Assembly: GCA_041690035.1 (NCBI GenBank)
Contig: JBDNFC010000016.1
Location: 113,092 to 177,091, forward strand
Reading direction: 5' to 3'
DNA: 64,000 nt
Origin: Bacteroidia bacterium
GTDB lineage: Bacteria; Bacteroidota; Bacteroidia; NS11-12g; UBA955
Position 1 is the first letter of the stretch, and every line of letters begins with the position of its first letter. The notes under the pieces are model-generated. The model had not been told where the DNA came from. It ran no database searches and was given only the letters and a program-made list of their open reading frames with translations. Made by a program: the position numbers and the translations under genes. Below, in pieces: positions 44,645 through 51,565 of this stretch.

Positions 44645-44784
44645 ACCTAAAAATTAGATTTTTTTACTTTTTCCGTTCCTTAATCAAAACACCCCGTTTA
44701 CAAAGCTAATTATATTACTTATGATTTTTAATTTGATGGTTTGTGCAAAATAATATTACCTTAGTGCAAAATTTTAGCCCGTTT

Positions 44785-45381
44785 ATGGAAAACGCTTTAC
44801 TTGCAAAAAATACTTTGATGACCCTAAAAGCATACATGGCATCGCATGCCACTTTTAATGCGCTAACCACTATTCAAAACTTGATAGCCGATGACAGTAA
44901 AAGAGCGGCTTTAAAATCTTTGTCAGTTTTTGCCAATTTTATTAGAAAAGCCGTTGATCAAATAGAAGATGTGGAGCGCAAAAGCGAACTCGAAATGGCG
45001 ATGCTTCAATATTATTGCACTATGGAACAGTGGCGTTTCGAGGAAAAACTAATTATTGAATTAGTTGCGGATAATAATCAGTTACCCTCAATGATACCTA
45101 GTTTTATTATTGTTCCATTTGCAGAGTTTTGTATCAGAACTGTATTGGCAGTAAATCAAAAAGCAAAGTTAAATTTCAGATCTTTTAATAATTCAACTCA
45201 TTTCGGTATTATTGCTTTAAGTTCTGTTTATTTTGATGATAAAAATCTAGCAATAAAAAACAATGAGCAGGAAAACAGATATCAATTAATGCAAGAAAGG
45301 ATATTACTTTATAAAAATATATATAACATCGAAATTCAATTTCATTCAAGGCAAATTCAACTAAATTTTCAAAAAATATAA
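44785..45381 (+). CDS. Stand-alone degenerate LytS-type histidine kinase domain (probable pseudokinase)
   Basis: H-box-like LKAYMASHATFNAL aligns with LRTQMNPHFIFNTL of the neighbouring kinase. The N-box (EN..HG to EF..TV) and the DNG box are lost. No TM or sensor domain. Alternative GTG start at 44743. Confidence 0.75.
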   Translation: MENALLAKNTLMTLKAYMASHATFNALTTIQNLIADDSKRAALKSLSVFANFIRKAVDQIEDVERKSELEMAMLQYYCTMEQWRFEEKLIIELVADNNQLPSMIPSFIIVPFAEFCIRTVLAVNQKAKLNFRSFNNSTHFGIIALSSVYFDDKNLAIKNNEQENRYQLMQERILLYKNIYNIEIQFHSRQIQLNFQKI

Positions 45382-45385
45382 AAAT

Positions 45386-46129
45386 ATGTTACAAGCAATA
45401 ATTATTGATGACGAAAACAATAGTCGGCAAGCGCTAAATAATTTAATTACAAAGTTTGCAAATGGGGTAGAAATCGTGGCAGAGGCTAGTAATTTTGAAG
45501 ACGGCTTATTGGCAATCGAAAAATATAAACCGGGTCTAGTATTTTTAGACTTAGAAATGCCTGACGCCAATGGTTTAGAACTGTTTACACGGCTTAAAAA
45601 AATAGATTTTGAGGTCATTATTACCACAGGGCATCAAGATTATGCAGTAAAGGCATTTAAAACAGCAGCGTTAGATTATCTGTTAAAACCTATAGATATA
45701 GACGAGCTAGAGGCAGCAATAGACAATGTTTTTGAAAAAAGAAAAGAAGTCCGAAAACACAATAATTTTGATGTCTTTATTCAAAATTGGAAAAATAATA
45801 CAGATCAACAAATAGCCCTTTCATCCTCAGACGGGCTCACTTTCTTAAAAGTGAGAGATATAGTTTATTGCAAGGGGGATGGAGCTTACACTTATTTTTT
45901 TACTGAGGATGGAAATAAGCTTGTAGTATCTAAAAATCTTAAAGAATTTGAAGAATTACTTAAGGACAAGGGTTTTTTTAGGGTTCATAAAAGTAGCTTG
46001 ATTAACTTAAATCATTTAAAAAAATATGTCAGGGGAGAAGGTGGACATGTATTGCTTACCAACGGGCATAATGTGATAGTGAGTAAAAGGCGCAAAGAAG
46101 GATTTTTATTGCAATTAGCTAAAGTTTAA
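45386..46129 (+). CDS. LytTR family DNA-binding response regulator (canonical)
   Basis: IIIDDE, FLDLEMP and YLLKP receiver motifs; FFRVHKSSLINL and VSKRRK LytTR motifs. Confidence 0.95.
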   Translation: MLQAIIIDDENNSRQALNNLITKFANGVEIVAEASNFEDGLLAIEKYKPGLVFLDLEMPDANGLELFTRLKKIDFEVIITTGHQDYAVKAFKTAALDYLLKPIDIDELEAAIDNVFEKRKEVRKHNNFDVFIQNWKNNTDQQIALSSSDGLTFLKVRDIVYCKGDGAYTYFFTEDGNKLVVSKNLKEFEELLKDKGFFRVHKSSLINLNHLKKYVRGEGGHVLLTNGHNVIVSKRRKEGFLLQLAKV

Positions 46130-46156
46130 TATATTTATGGATTAAATAAAAGGCCA

Positions 46157-46164
46157 TATTTTTG
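46157..46164 (+). promoter_or_regulatory. Internal -7 box (TATTTTTG) for the sensor kinase
   Basis: Consensus match 6 nt upstream of ATG 46171. Confidence 0.55.
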
Positions 46165-46170
46165 TAAGTA

Positions 46171-49100
46171 ATGTTTAATATCAAATTTTTAATACCTGTT
46201 TTAAGAAAAATTATAGCCAGTATAGCTTTGCTTATATGGGTAAAAATGGCATTTGCACAACCCATAGAGCGCAGGTTTATAAACTATACATTAGAAGATG
46301 GTTTATCCCAATCTACAATTATGGATATTAAGCAATCGGCAAATGGCAATATTTTTATGGCCACTGCTGATGGAGTTAATGTGTTTGATGGCAAAAGTTT
46401 CGAAATTTATAAAAACAATCCTGCCGATACCCAAACCCTTGGAAATAATTTAATTTATTGTGTTACTCCCATTTCTACACATATAGTTTGGGCATTAGAT
46501 CAAGATCAAATATTAAATCAAATAGATACTAGAACCAAGAAAGTTGTTAGATTAAATTACATTACCAAGTTAGGCATAGATAACATTGTAATAAAACAAG
46601 TGCTTTTAGCCGCCAATGGTGAAGTTTGGTTTGCTACTTATGAGCATGGTATAATTGTAATCAACACGTTTGGCAAAAAATTAGCAAGTTTTAATATTGA
46701 AAATAAGACACTAAAAAGCAATTCTATATTGCATTTATATTCAAAAGATGATCAAATATGGGCTAGCACTAGCGCTGGCTTGGCAAAAATAAATATAGAA
46801 TCGAAAACCGTTGTAAATTATTTTATAAATAGAGCTATAAATTGCGCTCATATCAATAAAAATAAGTTGTATGTGAGTTTTAATGATAAAAAATTAGGGG
46901 TGATTATTGCAAATAAAGAAAACCCCAACATGCTTTATGACTCCATTTTGCAGAATGAGTCTGTGGTGGCGATAGAAAGTCAAAAATCAGGTATTATTTG
47001 GTTTGGGTCATCTATCAATGGAGTTTACGAGTTTGATAATCATCAATTAGTACATCATTTTAATAAGCCACAGGACAAATGGTCATTAATAGACAATAAT
47101 ATTTGGACTATTTTTAAAGATGTAAATGACGATATTTATATTGGCACTAATAATGGACTTACGATTTTTAAAAACGCATATAATATATTTAAACTTTACC
47201 GACACAATCCACTTTTTGCCAATAGCCTGTCATCCAATAGAATATATAACATTGTAGAGGATTCTAAAAATGCTATTTGGTTTATTACATATGATGGAGA
47301 GGTAAATAGGTTGCAAAACGGTAAATTTACAATTTATGATAAAAATAATTGTACAGGCCTGAACACAACTCATTTAAGAACACTGTTTGAAACTAATGAT
47401 GGACAATATTTTGTTGGCTCATATGACGATGGCTTTTATAAATTTGACCCAAAGCGCAAAAAATTTACCAATATTAGACAAAAGGGGCAGAATATTTCGG
47501 AGGTTCGCATTATAAAACAGATAAACGAATCTACACTACTGATAGGACATGCTGAGGGATTGATATATTATAATTATTTGCAAAACACTTTTAAAAATAT
47601 AGATTTAGGTTTTTCATTCAAAGTTTATGACCTTTTTTTAGATGGTGATTATTGCTATATCGCCACCTTTGGTGCAGGATTAATAAAGTGGAGTATGAAA
47701 GACAACAGTACTAAAACCTTTAGACATATAAACGAAAAAAATAGCCTTAGCAACAATAATGTAATGTCTATTGTGGCAGTAAGTAAAGATACGCTAGCTT
47801 TGGGAACTTATGGGGGAGGGGTTTCGCTTTTTCATAAAATAAATCATTCGTTTTTAAATTTTTCAGAATCTAATGGCTTAAGCAATAACTCAGTTTATGG
47901 CATATTACTAGATAATAAAAACAACCTTTGGCTGAGCACCAATAAGGGTATAGTAAAATGGTTTGCAGATAGAAAAACAATAAAAAACTTTAATCTTTCA
48001 TCACAATTGCAGAGTTTAGAGTTTAATGAAGGCGCATTTTTGGCAGCTAAAAATGGAATGTTTTACTTTGGCGGGGTAAATGGAGTTAATTTTTTTAACC
48101 CCAGTCAATTGATGTTCAATAATAGAACGCCCAATGCTATCATACTCAACATTATCATAAATGGAAAAAATATAGATTGGCAAGACATTGCTCAAAAAAA
48201 AGCTGTTAATTTAAGGGCAAATCAAAACACAATAAAAATAATTTTTAAAGCATTGCATTATGGATTGGCAGAAAAAACACTTTTCTATTATAAGCTCGAA
48301 GGCATAGAAACAAGTTGGACGCTTCTCAATAATAAAGACAATAGCATTACTTTTAATAATCTTCCTTCGGGCAATTATCAGTTTTTGCTAAAAGCTTGTA
48401 ATGAAGATGATTTGTGCGATGAGGTGCCAAAAAAATTTAGTTTTGTGATTAATGCCCCCTTGTATAAAACGCCAATTTTTATTTTTATAAGCGGCATGCT
48501 GCTGCTGCTATTATTCTACGCAATATATGCTACAAGAACAAGAAACCTGCGCAGAAGCTATGCCGCCAAAATGACAGATGCAGAACTTAGGGCATTGCGA
48601 ACCCAAATGAATCCCCATTTTATTTTTAATACATTAAATAGTATCCAGTATTATGTGCTAAATGCTGATGCCAAAACTGCCTATAAATACCTAACAAAAT
48701 TTTCTTCGCTAATGCGCAGAATTTTACAACATAGCAAAGAAAATTTTTTGCCTCTAGAGGAAGAACTTACTTCACTGAAACTTTACTGTGAGTTAGAAAA
48801 TATAAGGTTGGAAAATGGTTTGGAGGTAAAATTTGATATTGACGCAAAAATTGACCAAAAAAGAACACTAATTCCAACACTCTTTTTGCAACCTTTTGTA
48901 GAAAATGCAATCATTCATGGATTATTGCCTAAGCAAGGGGATAAAAAAATATCAATTATCGTTAAAAAAAGTGAAAAAGGAGTGATTTGCATTATTCAAG
49001 ATAATGGCATTGGCAGAGAAAAATCTAGGATACTGAATAAACAAAGGTCTAGGAGCCATCAGTCTACCGCAATTAATGCCATTGAGCATAGAATTGACAT

Positions 49101-49191
49101 CTTAAATGAGAGCACAAAAATGAAATTGAAAATGGAGATTGAAGATTTGAATGACGGTACGCGAGTTTCGCTAATTATTGAACAACTATGA
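46171..49191 (+). CDS. LytS-type sensor histidine kinase with periplasmic beta-propeller (Reg_prop) and Y_Y_Y domains
   Basis: EDGLSQS and LSSN/LSNN propeller repeats; F.YKLEG...W and NLPSGNY.F..KA Y_Y_Y domain; TM segment; LRTQMNPHFIFN, QPFVENAIIHG and DNGIG. Confidence 0.93.
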   Translation: MFNIKFLIPVLRKIIASIALLIWVKMAFAQPIERRFINYTLEDGLSQSTIMDIKQSANGNIFMATADGVNVFDGKSFEIYKNNPADTQTLGNNLIYCVTPISTHIVWALDQDQILNQIDTRTKKVVRLNYITKLGIDNIVIKQVLLAANGEVWFATYEHGIIVINTFGKKLASFNIENKTLKSNSILHLYSKDDQIWASTSAGLAKINIESKTVVNYFINRAINCAHINKNKLYVSFNDKKLGVIIANKENPNMLYDSILQNESVVAIESQKSGIIWFGSSINGVYEFDNHQLVHHFNKPQDKWSLIDNNIWTIFKDVNDDIYIGTNNGLTIFKNAYNIFKLYRHNPLFANSLSSNRIYNIVEDSKNAIWFITYDGEVNRLQNGKFTIYDKNNCTGLNTTHLRTLFETNDGQYFVGSYDDGFYKFDPKRKKFTNIRQKGQNISEVRIIKQINESTLLIGHAEGLIYYNYLQNTFKNIDLGFSFKVYDLFLDGDYCYIATFGAGLIKWSMKDNSTKTFRHINEKNSLSNNNVMSIVAVSKDTLALGTYGGGVSLFHKINHSFLNFSESNGLSNNSVYGILLDNKNNLWLSTNKGIVKWFADRKTIKNFNLSSQLQSLEFNEGAFLAAKNGMFYFGGVNGVNFFNPSQLMFNNRTPNAIILNIIINGKNIDWQDIAQKKAVNLRANQNTIKIIFKALHYGLAEKTLFYYKLEGIETSWTLLNNKDNSITFNNLPSGNYQFLLKACNEDDLCDEVPKKFSFVINAPLYKTPIFIFISGMLLLLLFYAIYATRTRNLRRSYAAKMTDAELRALRTQMNPHFIFNTLNSIQYYVLNADAKTAYKYLTKFSSLMRRILQHSKENFLPLEEELTSLKLYCELENIRLENGLEVKFDIDAKIDQKRTLIPTLFLQPFVENAIIHGLLPKQGDKKISIIVKKSEKGVICIIQDNGIGREKSRILNKQRSRSHQSTAINAIEHRIDILNESTKMKLKMEIEDLNDGTRVSLIIEQL

Positions 49192-49949
49192 GGGCAATTA
49201 TAATAGATGATGAGCTGAAAAGTAGGGAGGTTTTAGGGAAACTAATTCACCAATTTTTTGAAGGAATAGATGTAATTGCTGGCAGTGGAGATATACAAGG
49301 TGCAATTACAGTTATTCAGCACTTAAAACCCGATCTTGTTTTTTTAGATATTAGCTTGCAGGATGGCGACTCTTTTAGTATTCTAAATAAATTGCCAGAA
49401 ATTGATTTTAAAATTATTTTTATTACTGCTTTTGATGAATATGCAACCCAAGCGATACTTTTTACCCAAATTCCATGCCTTCATAAGCCTTTAGATATTG
49501 ATGAGCTGGGCCAGGCACTATTAAAAGTAAAAAATCAAAATATACTCTCGGTGCGCGAAGATGTTAGCATTATATTAAATATACTTAATTCTACCTTTAG
49601 TATTATTCCTATTATGGATATTTTTAAAGTTACTTTTGTAGATGCATCTATTATCTGTATGATTAAAAAAGAAAATGGAGAATCATTATTTATTGATAAA
49701 AAATATACTGTAACAAAATCATGGTGCAGTTTTGATAAATATATTCGATTATTAAAAGGGCATGATTTTGCCCAACCAAATGAGAATATTTTATTGAATC
49801 TAAGTAATTTAAGATTTTATCCAAATGCCAAAGATGATTTTTTGACAGTTAATTTTGAGAATAAAGCTCAAAAACTTGAAGTCGCTTTTAGCCAAGATTA
49901 TAAAGTAGATTTTTTAAAACGCTATGCTAAACATTACCAGAAACAATAA
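49188..49949 (+). CDS. Response regulator with intact receiver and degenerate LytTR domain
   Basis: IIIDDE, FLDISL, TAFDEYA and HKP receiver motifs; the LytTR signature is replaced by FAQPNENILLN; ATGA overlap with the kinase. Confidence 0.8.
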   Translation: MRAIIIDDELKSREVLGKLIHQFFEGIDVIAGSGDIQGAITVIQHLKPDLVFLDISLQDGDSFSILNKLPEIDFKIIFITAFDEYATQAILFTQIPCLHKPLDIDELGQALLKVKNQNILSVREDVSIILNILNSTFSIIPIMDIFKVTFVDASIICMIKKENGESLFIDKKYTVTKSWCSFDKYIRLLKGHDFAQPNENILLNLSNLRFYPNAKDDFLTVNFENKAQKLEVAFSQDYKVDFLKRYAKHYQKQ

Positions 49950-49988: not shown

Positions 49989-51014
49989 ATGATGTCTAAA
50001 AAAAACCTAATCCTTATTGTTGTTTTATGCTCAATAATAGGAGCATATTTTCTTTTTCGAAAAGATATAAACAATAGCACGAGTCTGCGTAAAGATTTTT
50101 TTGCTATAAAAGAAATTAATGATATTGACAAAATATTTATTTCTAGTAATCAAGATAAAAGCTATGTAATACTCAGCAGAAATAAGCAAAATGTGTGGTA
50201 TGTAAATGATAAATGGATACTTAACGCAAGCAGATTAAAAATACTTTTAGAAACTGCCAAAGATATGGAGGTCAAATATCAAGTAAATGATAATGACAAA
50301 AAAGAGATTATGGCACATATTGCTACAATAGGATTTAAAGCAATGTATTATAAAAATAACAGATTAATGAAAAGCTATTTTATTGGTAGCAACACCCTGG
50401 ACCTGATGGGCACATTTATAGTAGCAGAAGGGAGTAACAATCCAGCAGTGGTGCATATACCCGGGTTTAATGGATTCTTAACCACCCGTTTTTTTACAGA
50501 TAGTATAGAGTGGCGTGATAAAAATATTTTCAATATTCCAGCATCTCAAATTAAGAATTTATCAGTAGTTTGGAATAATCAGCCTGAGCAATCTTTTAGT
50601 ATTAATCAACAAGATAAAACAATAGAATTTTCGCCATTAATAAAAGTTGCTGCTCCCAATTTTAATGAATTAAAGGTTAAATCTTTTTTAAACATCTTTT
50701 CAGTTTATGAGAAGAATAACTTGGCTTGTGAAGGTTTTCATAAAAAATTTACTAAAAGGCAAGTGGATAGTATTATGAACAGTCAATGGTTTTATAAAAT
50801 AGAAATAACTAAGCAAAATGGCGAAAAAACAAGTTTAAAATTATATAGAAAACCCATCCAAATAAATACCTATGAAGCATACGACACTCAGGGAAATCCA
50901 TTAGAATATGAAATTGATAAATATTGGGGTGTAAAAGATGATGAGCCTATGATTTTAGAAATACAAGATTTGGTTTTTGATAAAATACTAAAAGGTGTAA
51001 AAGATTTTAATTAA
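49989..51014 (+). CDS. DUF4340-like membrane-anchored protein
   Basis: N-terminal TM; FAIK..NDIDKIFI, HIPGFNGFLTTRF and WRDK.IF motifs. Confidence 0.7.
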   Translation: MMSKKNLILIVVLCSIIGAYFLFRKDINNSTSLRKDFFAIKEINDIDKIFISSNQDKSYVILSRNKQNVWYVNDKWILNASRLKILLETAKDMEVKYQVNDNDKKEIMAHIATIGFKAMYYKNNRLMKSYFIGSNTLDLMGTFIVAEGSNNPAVVHIPGFNGFLTTRFFTDSIEWRDKNIFNIPASQIKNLSVVWNNQPEQSFSINQQDKTIEFSPLIKVAAPNFNELKVKSFLNIFSVYEKNNLACEGFHKKFTKRQVDSIMNSQWFYKIEITKQNGEKTSLKLYRKPIQINTYEAYDTQGNPLEYEIDKYWGVKDDEPMILEIQDLVFDKILKGVKDFN

Positions 51015-51565
51015 TGATAGGTAGCTCCATTTTATATATTGTTGCAGGTACATTTGTGATGTATTTACTTTTTAAATTTGCTAAAAATTTATTTTATAAA
51101 GTTTTGATAATCCTCTTGCTTTTTTGCACTGCCATCTATGGGTTATATTATTTTAAAGTAGGGCCATTTATTGAAAATGTAGCACATATTGATGTAATTA
51201 GAGAAAGAGAATGCTTTAAAAAAAATACAGATATTACATGCGAATGCATTGTGAAATTATTGGAAAAAGACATTAGCAGTAGGTTTAATAAATCAGAAAT
51301 TGAAAAAATGAAAGATGATAGATCGCAAAGTGCGTATGTTTTCCAAAAAAGCATGTCAGCAATAAGCAATCAGGCAAAAGAGTGTCTTAAAAATAAAGGG
51401 CAAGAAAATCTTTGGAGGGCATTTATAAAATCTACATTACAATTAGATAACAGCCTAGTAAATGGAATAGAAAATTTGATAGAAAAGGGTAAAACAAATT
51501 TTGACGAAAAGCTAAATCACACTCAATGTGTAAAAGATAACATTGACAATAAATATAGTCGATAA
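51014..51565 (+). CDS. Hypothetical membrane protein (2 TM plus a Cys-containing soluble domain)
   Basis: TAATG coupling; hydrophobic N-terminus; C..CEC..C..C pattern. Confidence 0.65.
   Translation: MIGSSILYIVAGTFVMYLLFKFAKNLFYKVLIILLLFCTAIYGLYYFKVGPFIENVAHIDVIRERECFKKNTDITCECIVKLLEKDISSRFNKSEIEKMKDDRSQSAYVFQKSMSAISNQAKECLKNKGQENLWRAFIKSTLQLDNSLVNGIENLIEKGKTNFDEKLNHTQCVKDNIDNKYSR

Follow-up and report, generated by a model that had tools for sequence, protein, structure and literature searches.

Four co-oriented genes in a 64-kb stretch of Bacteroidia DNA (hereafter the window) form a cassette related to the LytS/LytTR two-component systems: gene 1 encodes a short protein with a kinase-core fold, gene 2 a LytTR response regulator, gene 3 a sensor kinase and gene 4 a second receiver protein (Table 1). 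We tentatively propose that the four genes are one unit, a His-Asp-His-Asp phosphorelay that runs from gene 3 through gene 4 and gene 1 to gene 2 and that is autoregulated through a direct repeat upstream of gene 1. The proposal centres on gene 1, whose family has kept an invariant histidine without an ATP site; this combination points to a phosphodonor other than ATP, and two candidate phosphodonors are encoded next to it, the kinase of gene 3 and the receiver of gene 4.

The four open reading frames (ORFs) are separated by 4, 41 and -4 nt, and at the last of these junctions the 4 nt ATGA are shared by the end of gene 3 and the beginning of gene 4. An initial annotation of the locus had described this close packing and had named genes 2 and 3 as a LytTR regulator and a beta-propeller LytS-type kinase. 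Both statements stand, the second on the Pfam domains of the two proteins and on the intact ENAIIHG and DNGIG motifs of gene 3, and every coordinate and motif that the annotation quoted is correct on checking. It had also cast genes 1 and 4 as maintained, disabled twins of a functional pair, a view that the evidence below revises.

Gene 1 is a kinase core without ATP-binding motifs

Gene 1 and the core of gene 3 are paralogues (28% identity), and their alignment runs from the H-box to the C-terminus of gene 3, covering its last 225 residues. Its only Pfam match is PF06580 (36.7 bits; cut-off 25.2), and HATPase_c is not matched in Pfam even at E<=1. Translation probably starts at the ATG at 44785, since orthologues conserve the 17 residues preceding MASH. 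This leaves 20 residues ahead of the histidine, and a sensor or transmembrane input region is absent. We rejected a reading of gene 1 as what remains of the 3′ end of a disrupted full-length kinase, as there is no coding remnant upstream and the start is conserved.

Alignment to the gene 3 core shows what has been kept and what has been lost. The H-box histidine is present (SHATFN in gene 1 vs PHFIFN in gene 3), the N-box helix reads VPFAEFCIRTVL where gene 3 has QPFVENAIIHGL, there is no DNGIG (G1 box), and the G2/lid segment SHQSTA is lost in a deletion of 6 residues. The earlier statement that gene 1 keeps its histidine and has lost the N-box and the DNG box is thus borne out, both by this alignment and by the match to PF06580 without HATPase_c. 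Judging from these motifs, gene 1 cannot plausibly bind ATP.

These features belong to a whole family of proteins. An exhaustive hidden Markov model (HMM) search of 1.84 billion representative proteins delineates a family of ~200-residue proteins in ~20 clusters at 50% identity. The best 16 matches are full-length, have 129-208 residues and score from 334 down to 89 bits; matches at or below 75 bits are ordinary kinases, some of them short fragments, with a few further short family members among them. Compared with true kinase cores by hhalign, the family aligns with 99.8% probability (E 2e-28) over 181 columns that span the DHp and CA domains. Across 19 aligned members, which are 23-47% identical to gene 1 of the window, S20, H21, A22, N25, L27, Q31, Y77, E81, R84, F85, R165 and L168 are invariant. 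The SHAxFN motif is invariant as well, and the N-box Asn, the G1 box and the G2/lid are missing in 19 of the 19; the position of the N-box Asn is occupied by F, M, Q, H, L or K. Because the loss of the ATP motifs is common to every member, it is ancient and fixed, and the histidine is the best-kept feature of the family. Gene 1 would therefore be too weakly described as a 'pseudo' copy or a disabled twin: by these alignments it represents a distinct, conserved and previously unannotated protein family, whose members are labelled 'histidine kinase' by annotation pipelines and are presumably not kinases. A scan of GTDB species genomes with two gene 1 patterns, YCTMEQW and LKAYMASH, found no relative; these patterns are narrow and say little about the wider family.

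The predicted structure of gene 1 resembles kinase cores and the phosphotransferase ChpT. The AlphaFold2 model, built from 16 sequences, has a predicted local distance difference test score (pLDDT) of 90.6 and a predicted template modelling score (pTM) of 0.88, and consists of helices over residues 2-57, forming a helical hairpin, followed by an alpha/beta domain. When this model is searched with Foldseek, the GanS kinase domain and DesK come first, four ChpT entries (4qpj, 4qpk, 4fmt and 4fpp; E ~5e-6 to 8e-5) fall within ranks 4-11, and RetS and DivL rank lower, with RetS kinase-region structures at ranks 24 and 32. A sequence search of the PDB with gene 1 gave GanS as its sole, marginal match (E 0.35).

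A perfect palindrome, TGGCATCGCATGCCA, lies at 44837-44851 over the Met-Ala-Ser-His-Ala codons of gene 1 and was marked on both strands by a terminator scan. We rejected it as a regulatory hairpin: its nucleotides are not kept in orthologues and it probably arose by chance.

Gene 4 pairs an intact receiver with a remodelled LytTR fold

All receiver residues of gene 4 are kept, as had been reported: D7, D8, D54, T80 and K100 are invariant, and Response_reg (PF00072; 49.3 bits) is the only Pfam match. The LytTR signature had been called erased, which holds for the DNA-contact motifs and not for the domain that carries them. Gene 4 has FAQPNENILLN (at 49767) where gene 2 has FFRVHKSSLIN (at 45974), and both RxH(K/R)S and S(K/R)R are absent from its LytTR-fold domain. 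In all gene 4 orthologues, FAQ(P/A/T/S)(N/D/S)(K/E/G)xxL stands in place of FFRVHKSxLINL, and (E/D)(E/D)Y(K/Q)xDF in place of VSKR(R/K)KE. By our own alignment, the replaced segments contain the counterparts of AgrA N201 and R233. In AgrA itself, these two residues are reported to contact DNA (PMC12482169). PF04397 LytTR is not matched by gene 4 of the window at E<=1.

Despite these replacements, gene 4 aligns to gene 2 with 31% identity over 221 residues, C-terminal half included, and its AlphaFold2 model (pLDDT 94.1) contains a LytTR fold: the top Foldseek match is full-length ComE (4cbv), and the LytTR domain 3d6w is matched with a TMt of 0.73. Moreover, the gene 4 orthologues of two related loci, L090 (31 bits) and L093 (22.9 bits), exceed the PF04397 cut-off of 22.6 bits. 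The C-terminal domain has a conserved signature of its own (SWYPFxKYxxLLKxHxFAQ and DYKxDFIKR), so that 'disabled twin' again says too little. Its net charge is near neutral, 0 to +1, except in the window, where it is +4. Three residues before the conserved Lys, at the position of the aromatic switch, gene 4 has Cys97 and its orthologue in L094 has Thr, whereas gene 2 has Tyr. Spo0F likewise lacks an aromatic switch residue, having His101.

Gene 2 is the likely output and has a candidate operator

Of the four genes, gene 2 shows the strongest conservation (74-76% identity). It matches both Response_reg (83.5 bits) and LytTR (65.2 bits), has D55, the Tyr switch residue and an intact FFRVHKSSLIN motif, and its C-terminal domain bears a net charge of +4 to +7. 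By these features it is the sole member of the cassette with a canonical, basic LytTR domain.

LytTR binding sites usually comprise a pair of direct repeats spaced by about two helical turns. LytTR domains of the ComE type recognize two direct repeats (PMC12482169). The direct repeat upstream of gene 1, CCGTT-N16-CCGTT, is the single match to its pattern on both strands of the 64-kb window (0.27 expected). Of 11 gene-1-bearing loci searched by pattern, 9 have an equivalent repeat 63-150 nt ahead of gene 1, and these account for 9 of the 10 matches in 257 kb; in L091 a near variant is visible by eye. Where the cassette is split (see below), the repeat stays with genes 1 and 2. Because the geometry of the repeat is that of LytTR sites, gene 2 probably autoregulates the operon through this predicted operator.

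Gene 3 consists of a signal/transmembrane segment, a Reg_prop beta-propeller, a Y_Y_Y domain, a second transmembrane segment, a PF06580 DHp domain with His816 (codon 48616-48618) and a CA domain; Pfam finds no receiver domain in it. Its HATPase_c match is weak and sub-threshold (17 bits), with ENAIIHG and DNGIG intact. Within the gene 3 core (48514-49188), the G2/lid reads H(Q/K/E)STA in 12 of 12 orthologues, and related Bacteroidota kinases have Gly at the position of the lid Ala (HKSxG, HQSMG). This Ala may partly explain the weak HATPase_c score.

The cassette is a conserved unit built from two modules

The initial annotation had suggested checking the gene order in relatives. The order gene 1-gene 2-gene 3-gene 4 is found in 10 sequence-distinct loci (the window, L001, L003, L007, L089, L091, L097, L094, L099 and L101/L102), with L003-L006, L007/L008 and L101/L102 each counted once. 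Flanking genes vary between lineages while the four-gene block persists, so the block itself is the conserved unit, and the four genes give congruent neighbour-joining trees. A deep sister clade (L094, L099, L101 and L102) has the same order even though its gene 1 is only ~23-28% identical to that of the window by global alignment. In this clade, gene 4 has 177-199 residues and consists of a receiver and a stub, with REC as its only Pfam match. Therefore, the receiver, and not the DNA-binding domain, is what all gene 4 proteins have in common.

One lineage departs from this layout in an informative way. L090 and L093 contain genes 3 and 4 and two downstream genes without adjacent genes 1 and 2, L100 contains genes 1 and 2 alone, and L100 occupies the same place on the gene 1 and gene 2 trees as L090 and L093 do on the gene 3 and gene 4 trees. 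L093 and L100 come from one sample, SRR23272326, with GC contents of 32.8% and 36.2%. The simplest reading of the tree positions and the shared sample, the contigs being unbinned, is that the cassette was split into two loci in this lineage rather than lost. The natural modules, found separately in one lineage, are genes 1 and 2 on the one hand and genes 3 and 4 on the other; this displaces the earlier division into a functional pair (genes 2 and 3) and a spare pair (genes 1 and 4). The gap between genes 1 and 2 is 2-13 nt, and this spacing is retained even where the cassette is split.

The modules could also be two independent systems that happen to be neighbours, in which genes 3 and 4 would be a normal pair and gene 2 an orphan regulator served by another kinase or by acetyl phosphate, with gene 1 as its dedicated phosphatase. 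Both pairs do have the usual kinase-then-regulator arrangement, and L100 on one side and L090 and L093 on the other demonstrate that they are separable. We nevertheless consider this explanation quite improbable. The two modules are contiguous in the 10 sequence-distinct loci despite changing flanks and despite divergence of gene 1 to 23-28% identity, and intergenic gaps of 6-74 nt fit one operon. In addition, a short gene-1-like protein accompanies 0 of 80 ordinary Bacteroidota LytTR loci. These loci, used as a negative control, came from a scan of GTDB genomes with gene 4 patterns, whose matches were all ordinary LytTR regulators (26-47% identity).

Several loci differ in other ways. In L089, L091 and L097, genes for an S41 peptidase, a Lactamase_B-rhodanese protein and a CNNM/CorC protein precede the cassette. 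Upstream of gene 3 in L090 and L093, both the CNNM gene and genes 1 and 2 are missing; therefore, a three-gene segment moved or was lost together. In L005 (10535-13574), the gene 3 orthologue is called as two ORFs of 88 and 935 residues, and sister contigs with an identical gene 1 protein have it intact with 1004 residues, so this is either a frameshift or an assembly error. In L098 (1993-2871), gene 1 is followed by a gene 2 truncated at 143 residues that runs into unrelated genes on the opposite strand, which has the look of a rearrangement or of a chimera made in assembly.

Genes 1 and 4 are under purifying selection

The rate of nonsynonymous substitution (dN) is far below that of synonymous substitution (dS) throughout, although dS is saturated in all usable pairs, which makes the values of omega (dN/dS) rough, and YN00 was usable in a minority of pairs. 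Overall, gene 1 has a dN/dS of 0.09-0.15 and gene 4 one of 0.01-0.04. In the comparison of L003 with L007, genes 1, 2 and 3 have omega values of 0.09, 0.036 and 0.025, respectively; gene 4 comes out at 0.01 by YN00, NG86 being incomputable there because dS is saturated. Constraint is uneven within the proteins. The DHp half of gene 1, with omega of 0.007-0.04, is the most constrained segment of the cassette, and the CA-like half has values of 0.14-0.19; in gene 4, the receiver has 0.04-0.05 and the C-terminal domain 0.02-0.03.

Hallmark family motifs are missing from genes 1 and 4, as one would expect if both were functionless remnants of a tandem duplication on their way to decay. However, both are full length with lengths conserved in all lineages, both have low dN/dS and high-confidence AlphaFold2 models, and the 'losses' are identical in every family member and hence ancient and fixed. 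The comparative data effectively refute decay, and genes 1 and 4 are thus maintained, as originally suggested from their length and now shown by the conserved gene order, the congruent trees and a dN/dS well below 1.

A candidate His-Asp-His-Asp phosphorelay

In the relay that we propose, the gene 3 beta-propeller sensor kinase would autophosphorylate on His816 and transfer phosphate to Asp54 of the translationally coupled gene 4, in which the receiver would be the conserved essential part. Phosphorylated gene 4 would then pass the phosphate to His21 of gene 1, a presumably dimeric kinase-derived protein unable to use ATP, and phosphorylated gene 1 would pass it to Asp55 of gene 2. Finally, gene 2 would act on direct repeats such as that at 44673-44698 and so autoregulate the operon. 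Such a chain would parallel the KinA-Spo0F-Spo0B-Spo0A relay, with all of its parts drawn from the LytS/LytTR family. We favour a relay because gene 4 is a bare receiver in the sister clade and is without an aromatic switch, and because only gene 2 has a canonical DNA-binding domain. Among the roles first offered for the additional genes (His relay, dominant-negative partner, phosphate sink or rheostat), a His relay fits best, the other three being conceivable. The layout, two kinase-then-regulator pairs, suggests that such a pair was duplicated in tandem and that the copies then underwent complementary losses: one kinase copy would have lost its sensor and ATP site, and the other regulator copy its DNA contacts.

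Four observations weigh against such a relay. Gene 1 does not match the Pfam families of Spo0B or ChpT at E<=1. The C-terminal LytTR fold of gene 4 is strongly conserved in most of the clade (omega ~0.02-0.03), so gene 4 may have an output of its own, as a pure intermediate would not need a conserved C-terminal domain. In L090 and L093, a module of gene 3, gene 4, a DUF4340-like gene and a gene for a 178-residue protein exists without adjacent genes 1 and 2. Lastly, the receiver alpha1 faces of genes 2 and 4 are similar by eye, xSR(E/Q)(V/A)L, and gene 3 could phosphorylate both directly; by the same inspection, these residues are too alike to assign a kinase-type partner to gene 2 as opposed to gene 4.

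This last point bears on a branched circuit like that of Myxococcus xanthus RedCDEF, in which transfer from a receiver to a kinase-like histidine has been shown in vitro (PMC2755868). Here, gene 3 would phosphorylate genes 2 and 4, phosphorylated gene 4 would donate to His21 of gene 1, and gene 1 would mainly drain phosphate from gene 2, acting as a gated phosphatase that sets the duration or threshold of the response. The gene content is alike: each operon encodes a kinase, a kinase-like protein unable to autophosphorylate (for gene 1 a predicted loss, read from its motifs) and two regulators, and the kinase-like RedE receives phosphate from a receiver, as we propose for gene 1. Furthermore, the similar alpha1 helices would allow both receivers to dock on gene 3, the Asn at H+4 next to the histidine (SHAxFN) is kept in gene 1, and the tight coupling of genes 1 and 2 survives the splitting of the cassette. 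On the other hand, the kinase families differ (PF06580 rather than HisKA), as do the domain layouts (RedD has two receivers and RedF is a single-domain receiver), and the Red system has no LytTR output. RedE acts as a phosphatase and not as a forward relay. Nothing indicates that gene 3 reaches gene 2 directly, and the bare-receiver gene 4 of the sister clade suits a relay at least equally well. We therefore regard a branched circuit as unlikely, if worth keeping in view.

The paralogy of gene 1 and the gene 3 core, together with the RetS structures in the Foldseek list, raises an alternative of the RetS/GacS kind. Gene 1 would heterodimerize with the DHp domain of gene 3, either to be trans-phosphorylated by the gene 3 CA domain and serve gene 2 or to act as a dominant-negative block or siphon, and gene 4 would be the normal partner regulator of gene 3, its LytTR output being non-canonical. 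The occurrence of genes 3 and 4 alone in L090 and L093, whose gene 4 proteins exceed the LytTR threshold, and the strong conservation of the gene 4 C-terminal domain agree with this. But a pure inhibitor needs no invariant histidine and H-box across members that are only 23-47% identical to gene 1 of the window, the DHp alpha1 positions +7, +8, +11 and +12 differ between genes 1 and 3, gene 1 goes with gene 2 and never with gene 3 when the cassette splits, and gene 4 in the sister clade has no output domain at all. We judge this alternative improbable.

Comparison with known systems

Kinase-core folds are known to work as dimeric histidine phosphotransferases in two relays, KinA-Spo0F-Spo0B-Spo0A of Bacillus and CckA-ChpT-CtrA/CpdR of Caulobacter. 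ChpT is a helical hairpin joined to an alpha/beta domain that binds no nucleotide, and it shuttles phosphate on His33 (PMC3433190). Gene 1 resembles ChpT and Spo0B in that a hairpin with a conserved histidine is followed by a Bergerat-type alpha/beta domain without ATP binding (predicted for gene 1; for ChpT, PMC3433190), and in that its neighbours encode a kinase, a receiver-type protein and a terminal regulator of the DNA-binding kind. Also, the receiver-and-stub gene 4 of the sister clade resembles Spo0F. Unlike ChpT and Spo0B, however, gene 1 lies outside their sequence families and derives from a LytS-type PF06580 kinase, from which an independent origin would follow; the upstream kinase of the cassette is not a hybrid kinase, and the intermediate receiver, gene 4, bears a LytTR-fold appendage in most lineages. 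Gene 1 may thus be a functional analogue of Spo0B and ChpT without being a member of their families. It is possible, and we put it no more firmly, that gene 1 is a third, independently evolved class of kinase-derived dimeric phosphotransferase, and that the cassette is the first His-Asp-His-Asp relay of both the LytS/LytTR family and the Bacteroidota.

Genes 2 and 3 carry the same PF06580 DHp, CA, REC and LytTR domains as LytSR, BtsSR/YehUT, AgrCA and ComDE, and a direct-repeat operator is likely here too. Those canonical systems differ in having two proteins and one step, and we know of none with an ATP-blind kinase paralogue and a second receiver protein. The literature that we searched, recent reviews of two-component systems and phosphorelays included, contains neither a LytS/LytTR phosphorelay nor an account of the gene 1 family, although its coverage is incomplete. 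DivL and RetS, both in the Foldseek list of gene 1, are likewise kinase-core folds repurposed for protein-protein signalling. DivL has Tyr instead of His and keeps its CA domain, and RetS is a large hybrid protein; in contrast, gene 1 is minimal, keeps its histidine and has lost the ATP site.

These comparisons have implications for how phosphorelays evolve. Multi-step phosphorelays offer bacteria additional points of control, and those studied in depth rely on Hpt domains, Spo0B or ChpT. If the proposed relay is real, kinase cores were converted to phosphotransferases on three or more independent occasions, relays could also be built from the LytS/LytTR family, which is seen as simple and one-step, and the cassette would be a clean natural example of a pathway lengthened by duplication and complementary degeneration. 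The practical yield is an unannotated protein family, a compact and testable set of four proteins and a candidate operator.

Genomic setting

The cassette lies in an ordinary Bacteroidota chromosome. A 156-nt intergenic region 5′ of gene 1 separates it from a divergent EVE-domain gene; pyrR and pyrB also lie upstream on that opposite strand. A scan for sigma-70 promoters and terminators was uninformative (43 promoter-like sites vs 44.5 expected). Downstream are typA, citrate synthase and cysS, and type IX secretion system (T9SS) CHU_C and TonB-receptor genes are present elsewhere in the 64-kb window.

Table 1. Positions of the cassette and associated features in the window
Feature	Coordinates	Strand	Description
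Direct repeat CCGTT-N16-CCGTT	44673-44698	+	Period of 21 bp; 112 nt 5′ of the ATG of gene 1; candidate LytTR (gene 2) site/operator
Gene 1	44785-45381	+	198 residues; sensor-less cytoplasmic LytS-type kinase core, ATP motifs absent; candidate histidine phosphotransferase
His21 codon of gene 1	44845-44847	+	H-box SHATFN; putative phospho-accepting histidine; coordinate checked
Degenerate N-box helix of gene 1	45112-45147	+	VPFAEFCIRTVL; Glu kept, Mg-ATP Asn replaced
Gene 2	45386-46129	+	Canonical REC-LytTR response regulator; presumed terminal DNA-binding output
Gene 3	46171-49191	+	1006-residue sensor kinase
Gene 4	49188-49949	+	REC and LytTR-fold domain; candidate intermediate receiver
DUF4340-like gene	49989-51014	+	Membrane-anchored protein, 341 residues; weak Pfam DUF4340 match
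Gene for 183-residue protein	51014-51565	+	Two N-terminal hydrophobic helices; follows the DUF4340-like gene

The 183-residue protein has no Pfam or NCBIfam match. The DUF4340-like gene and the gene that follows it are not found after the cassette in L003, L007 or the sister clade. In L089, L090, L093 and L097, orthologues of both, 51-54% identical, lie directly 3′ of gene 4 and often overlap it. The two genes are thus co-inherited with genes 3 and 4 in part of the clade, and they may be accessory or target genes of that module.

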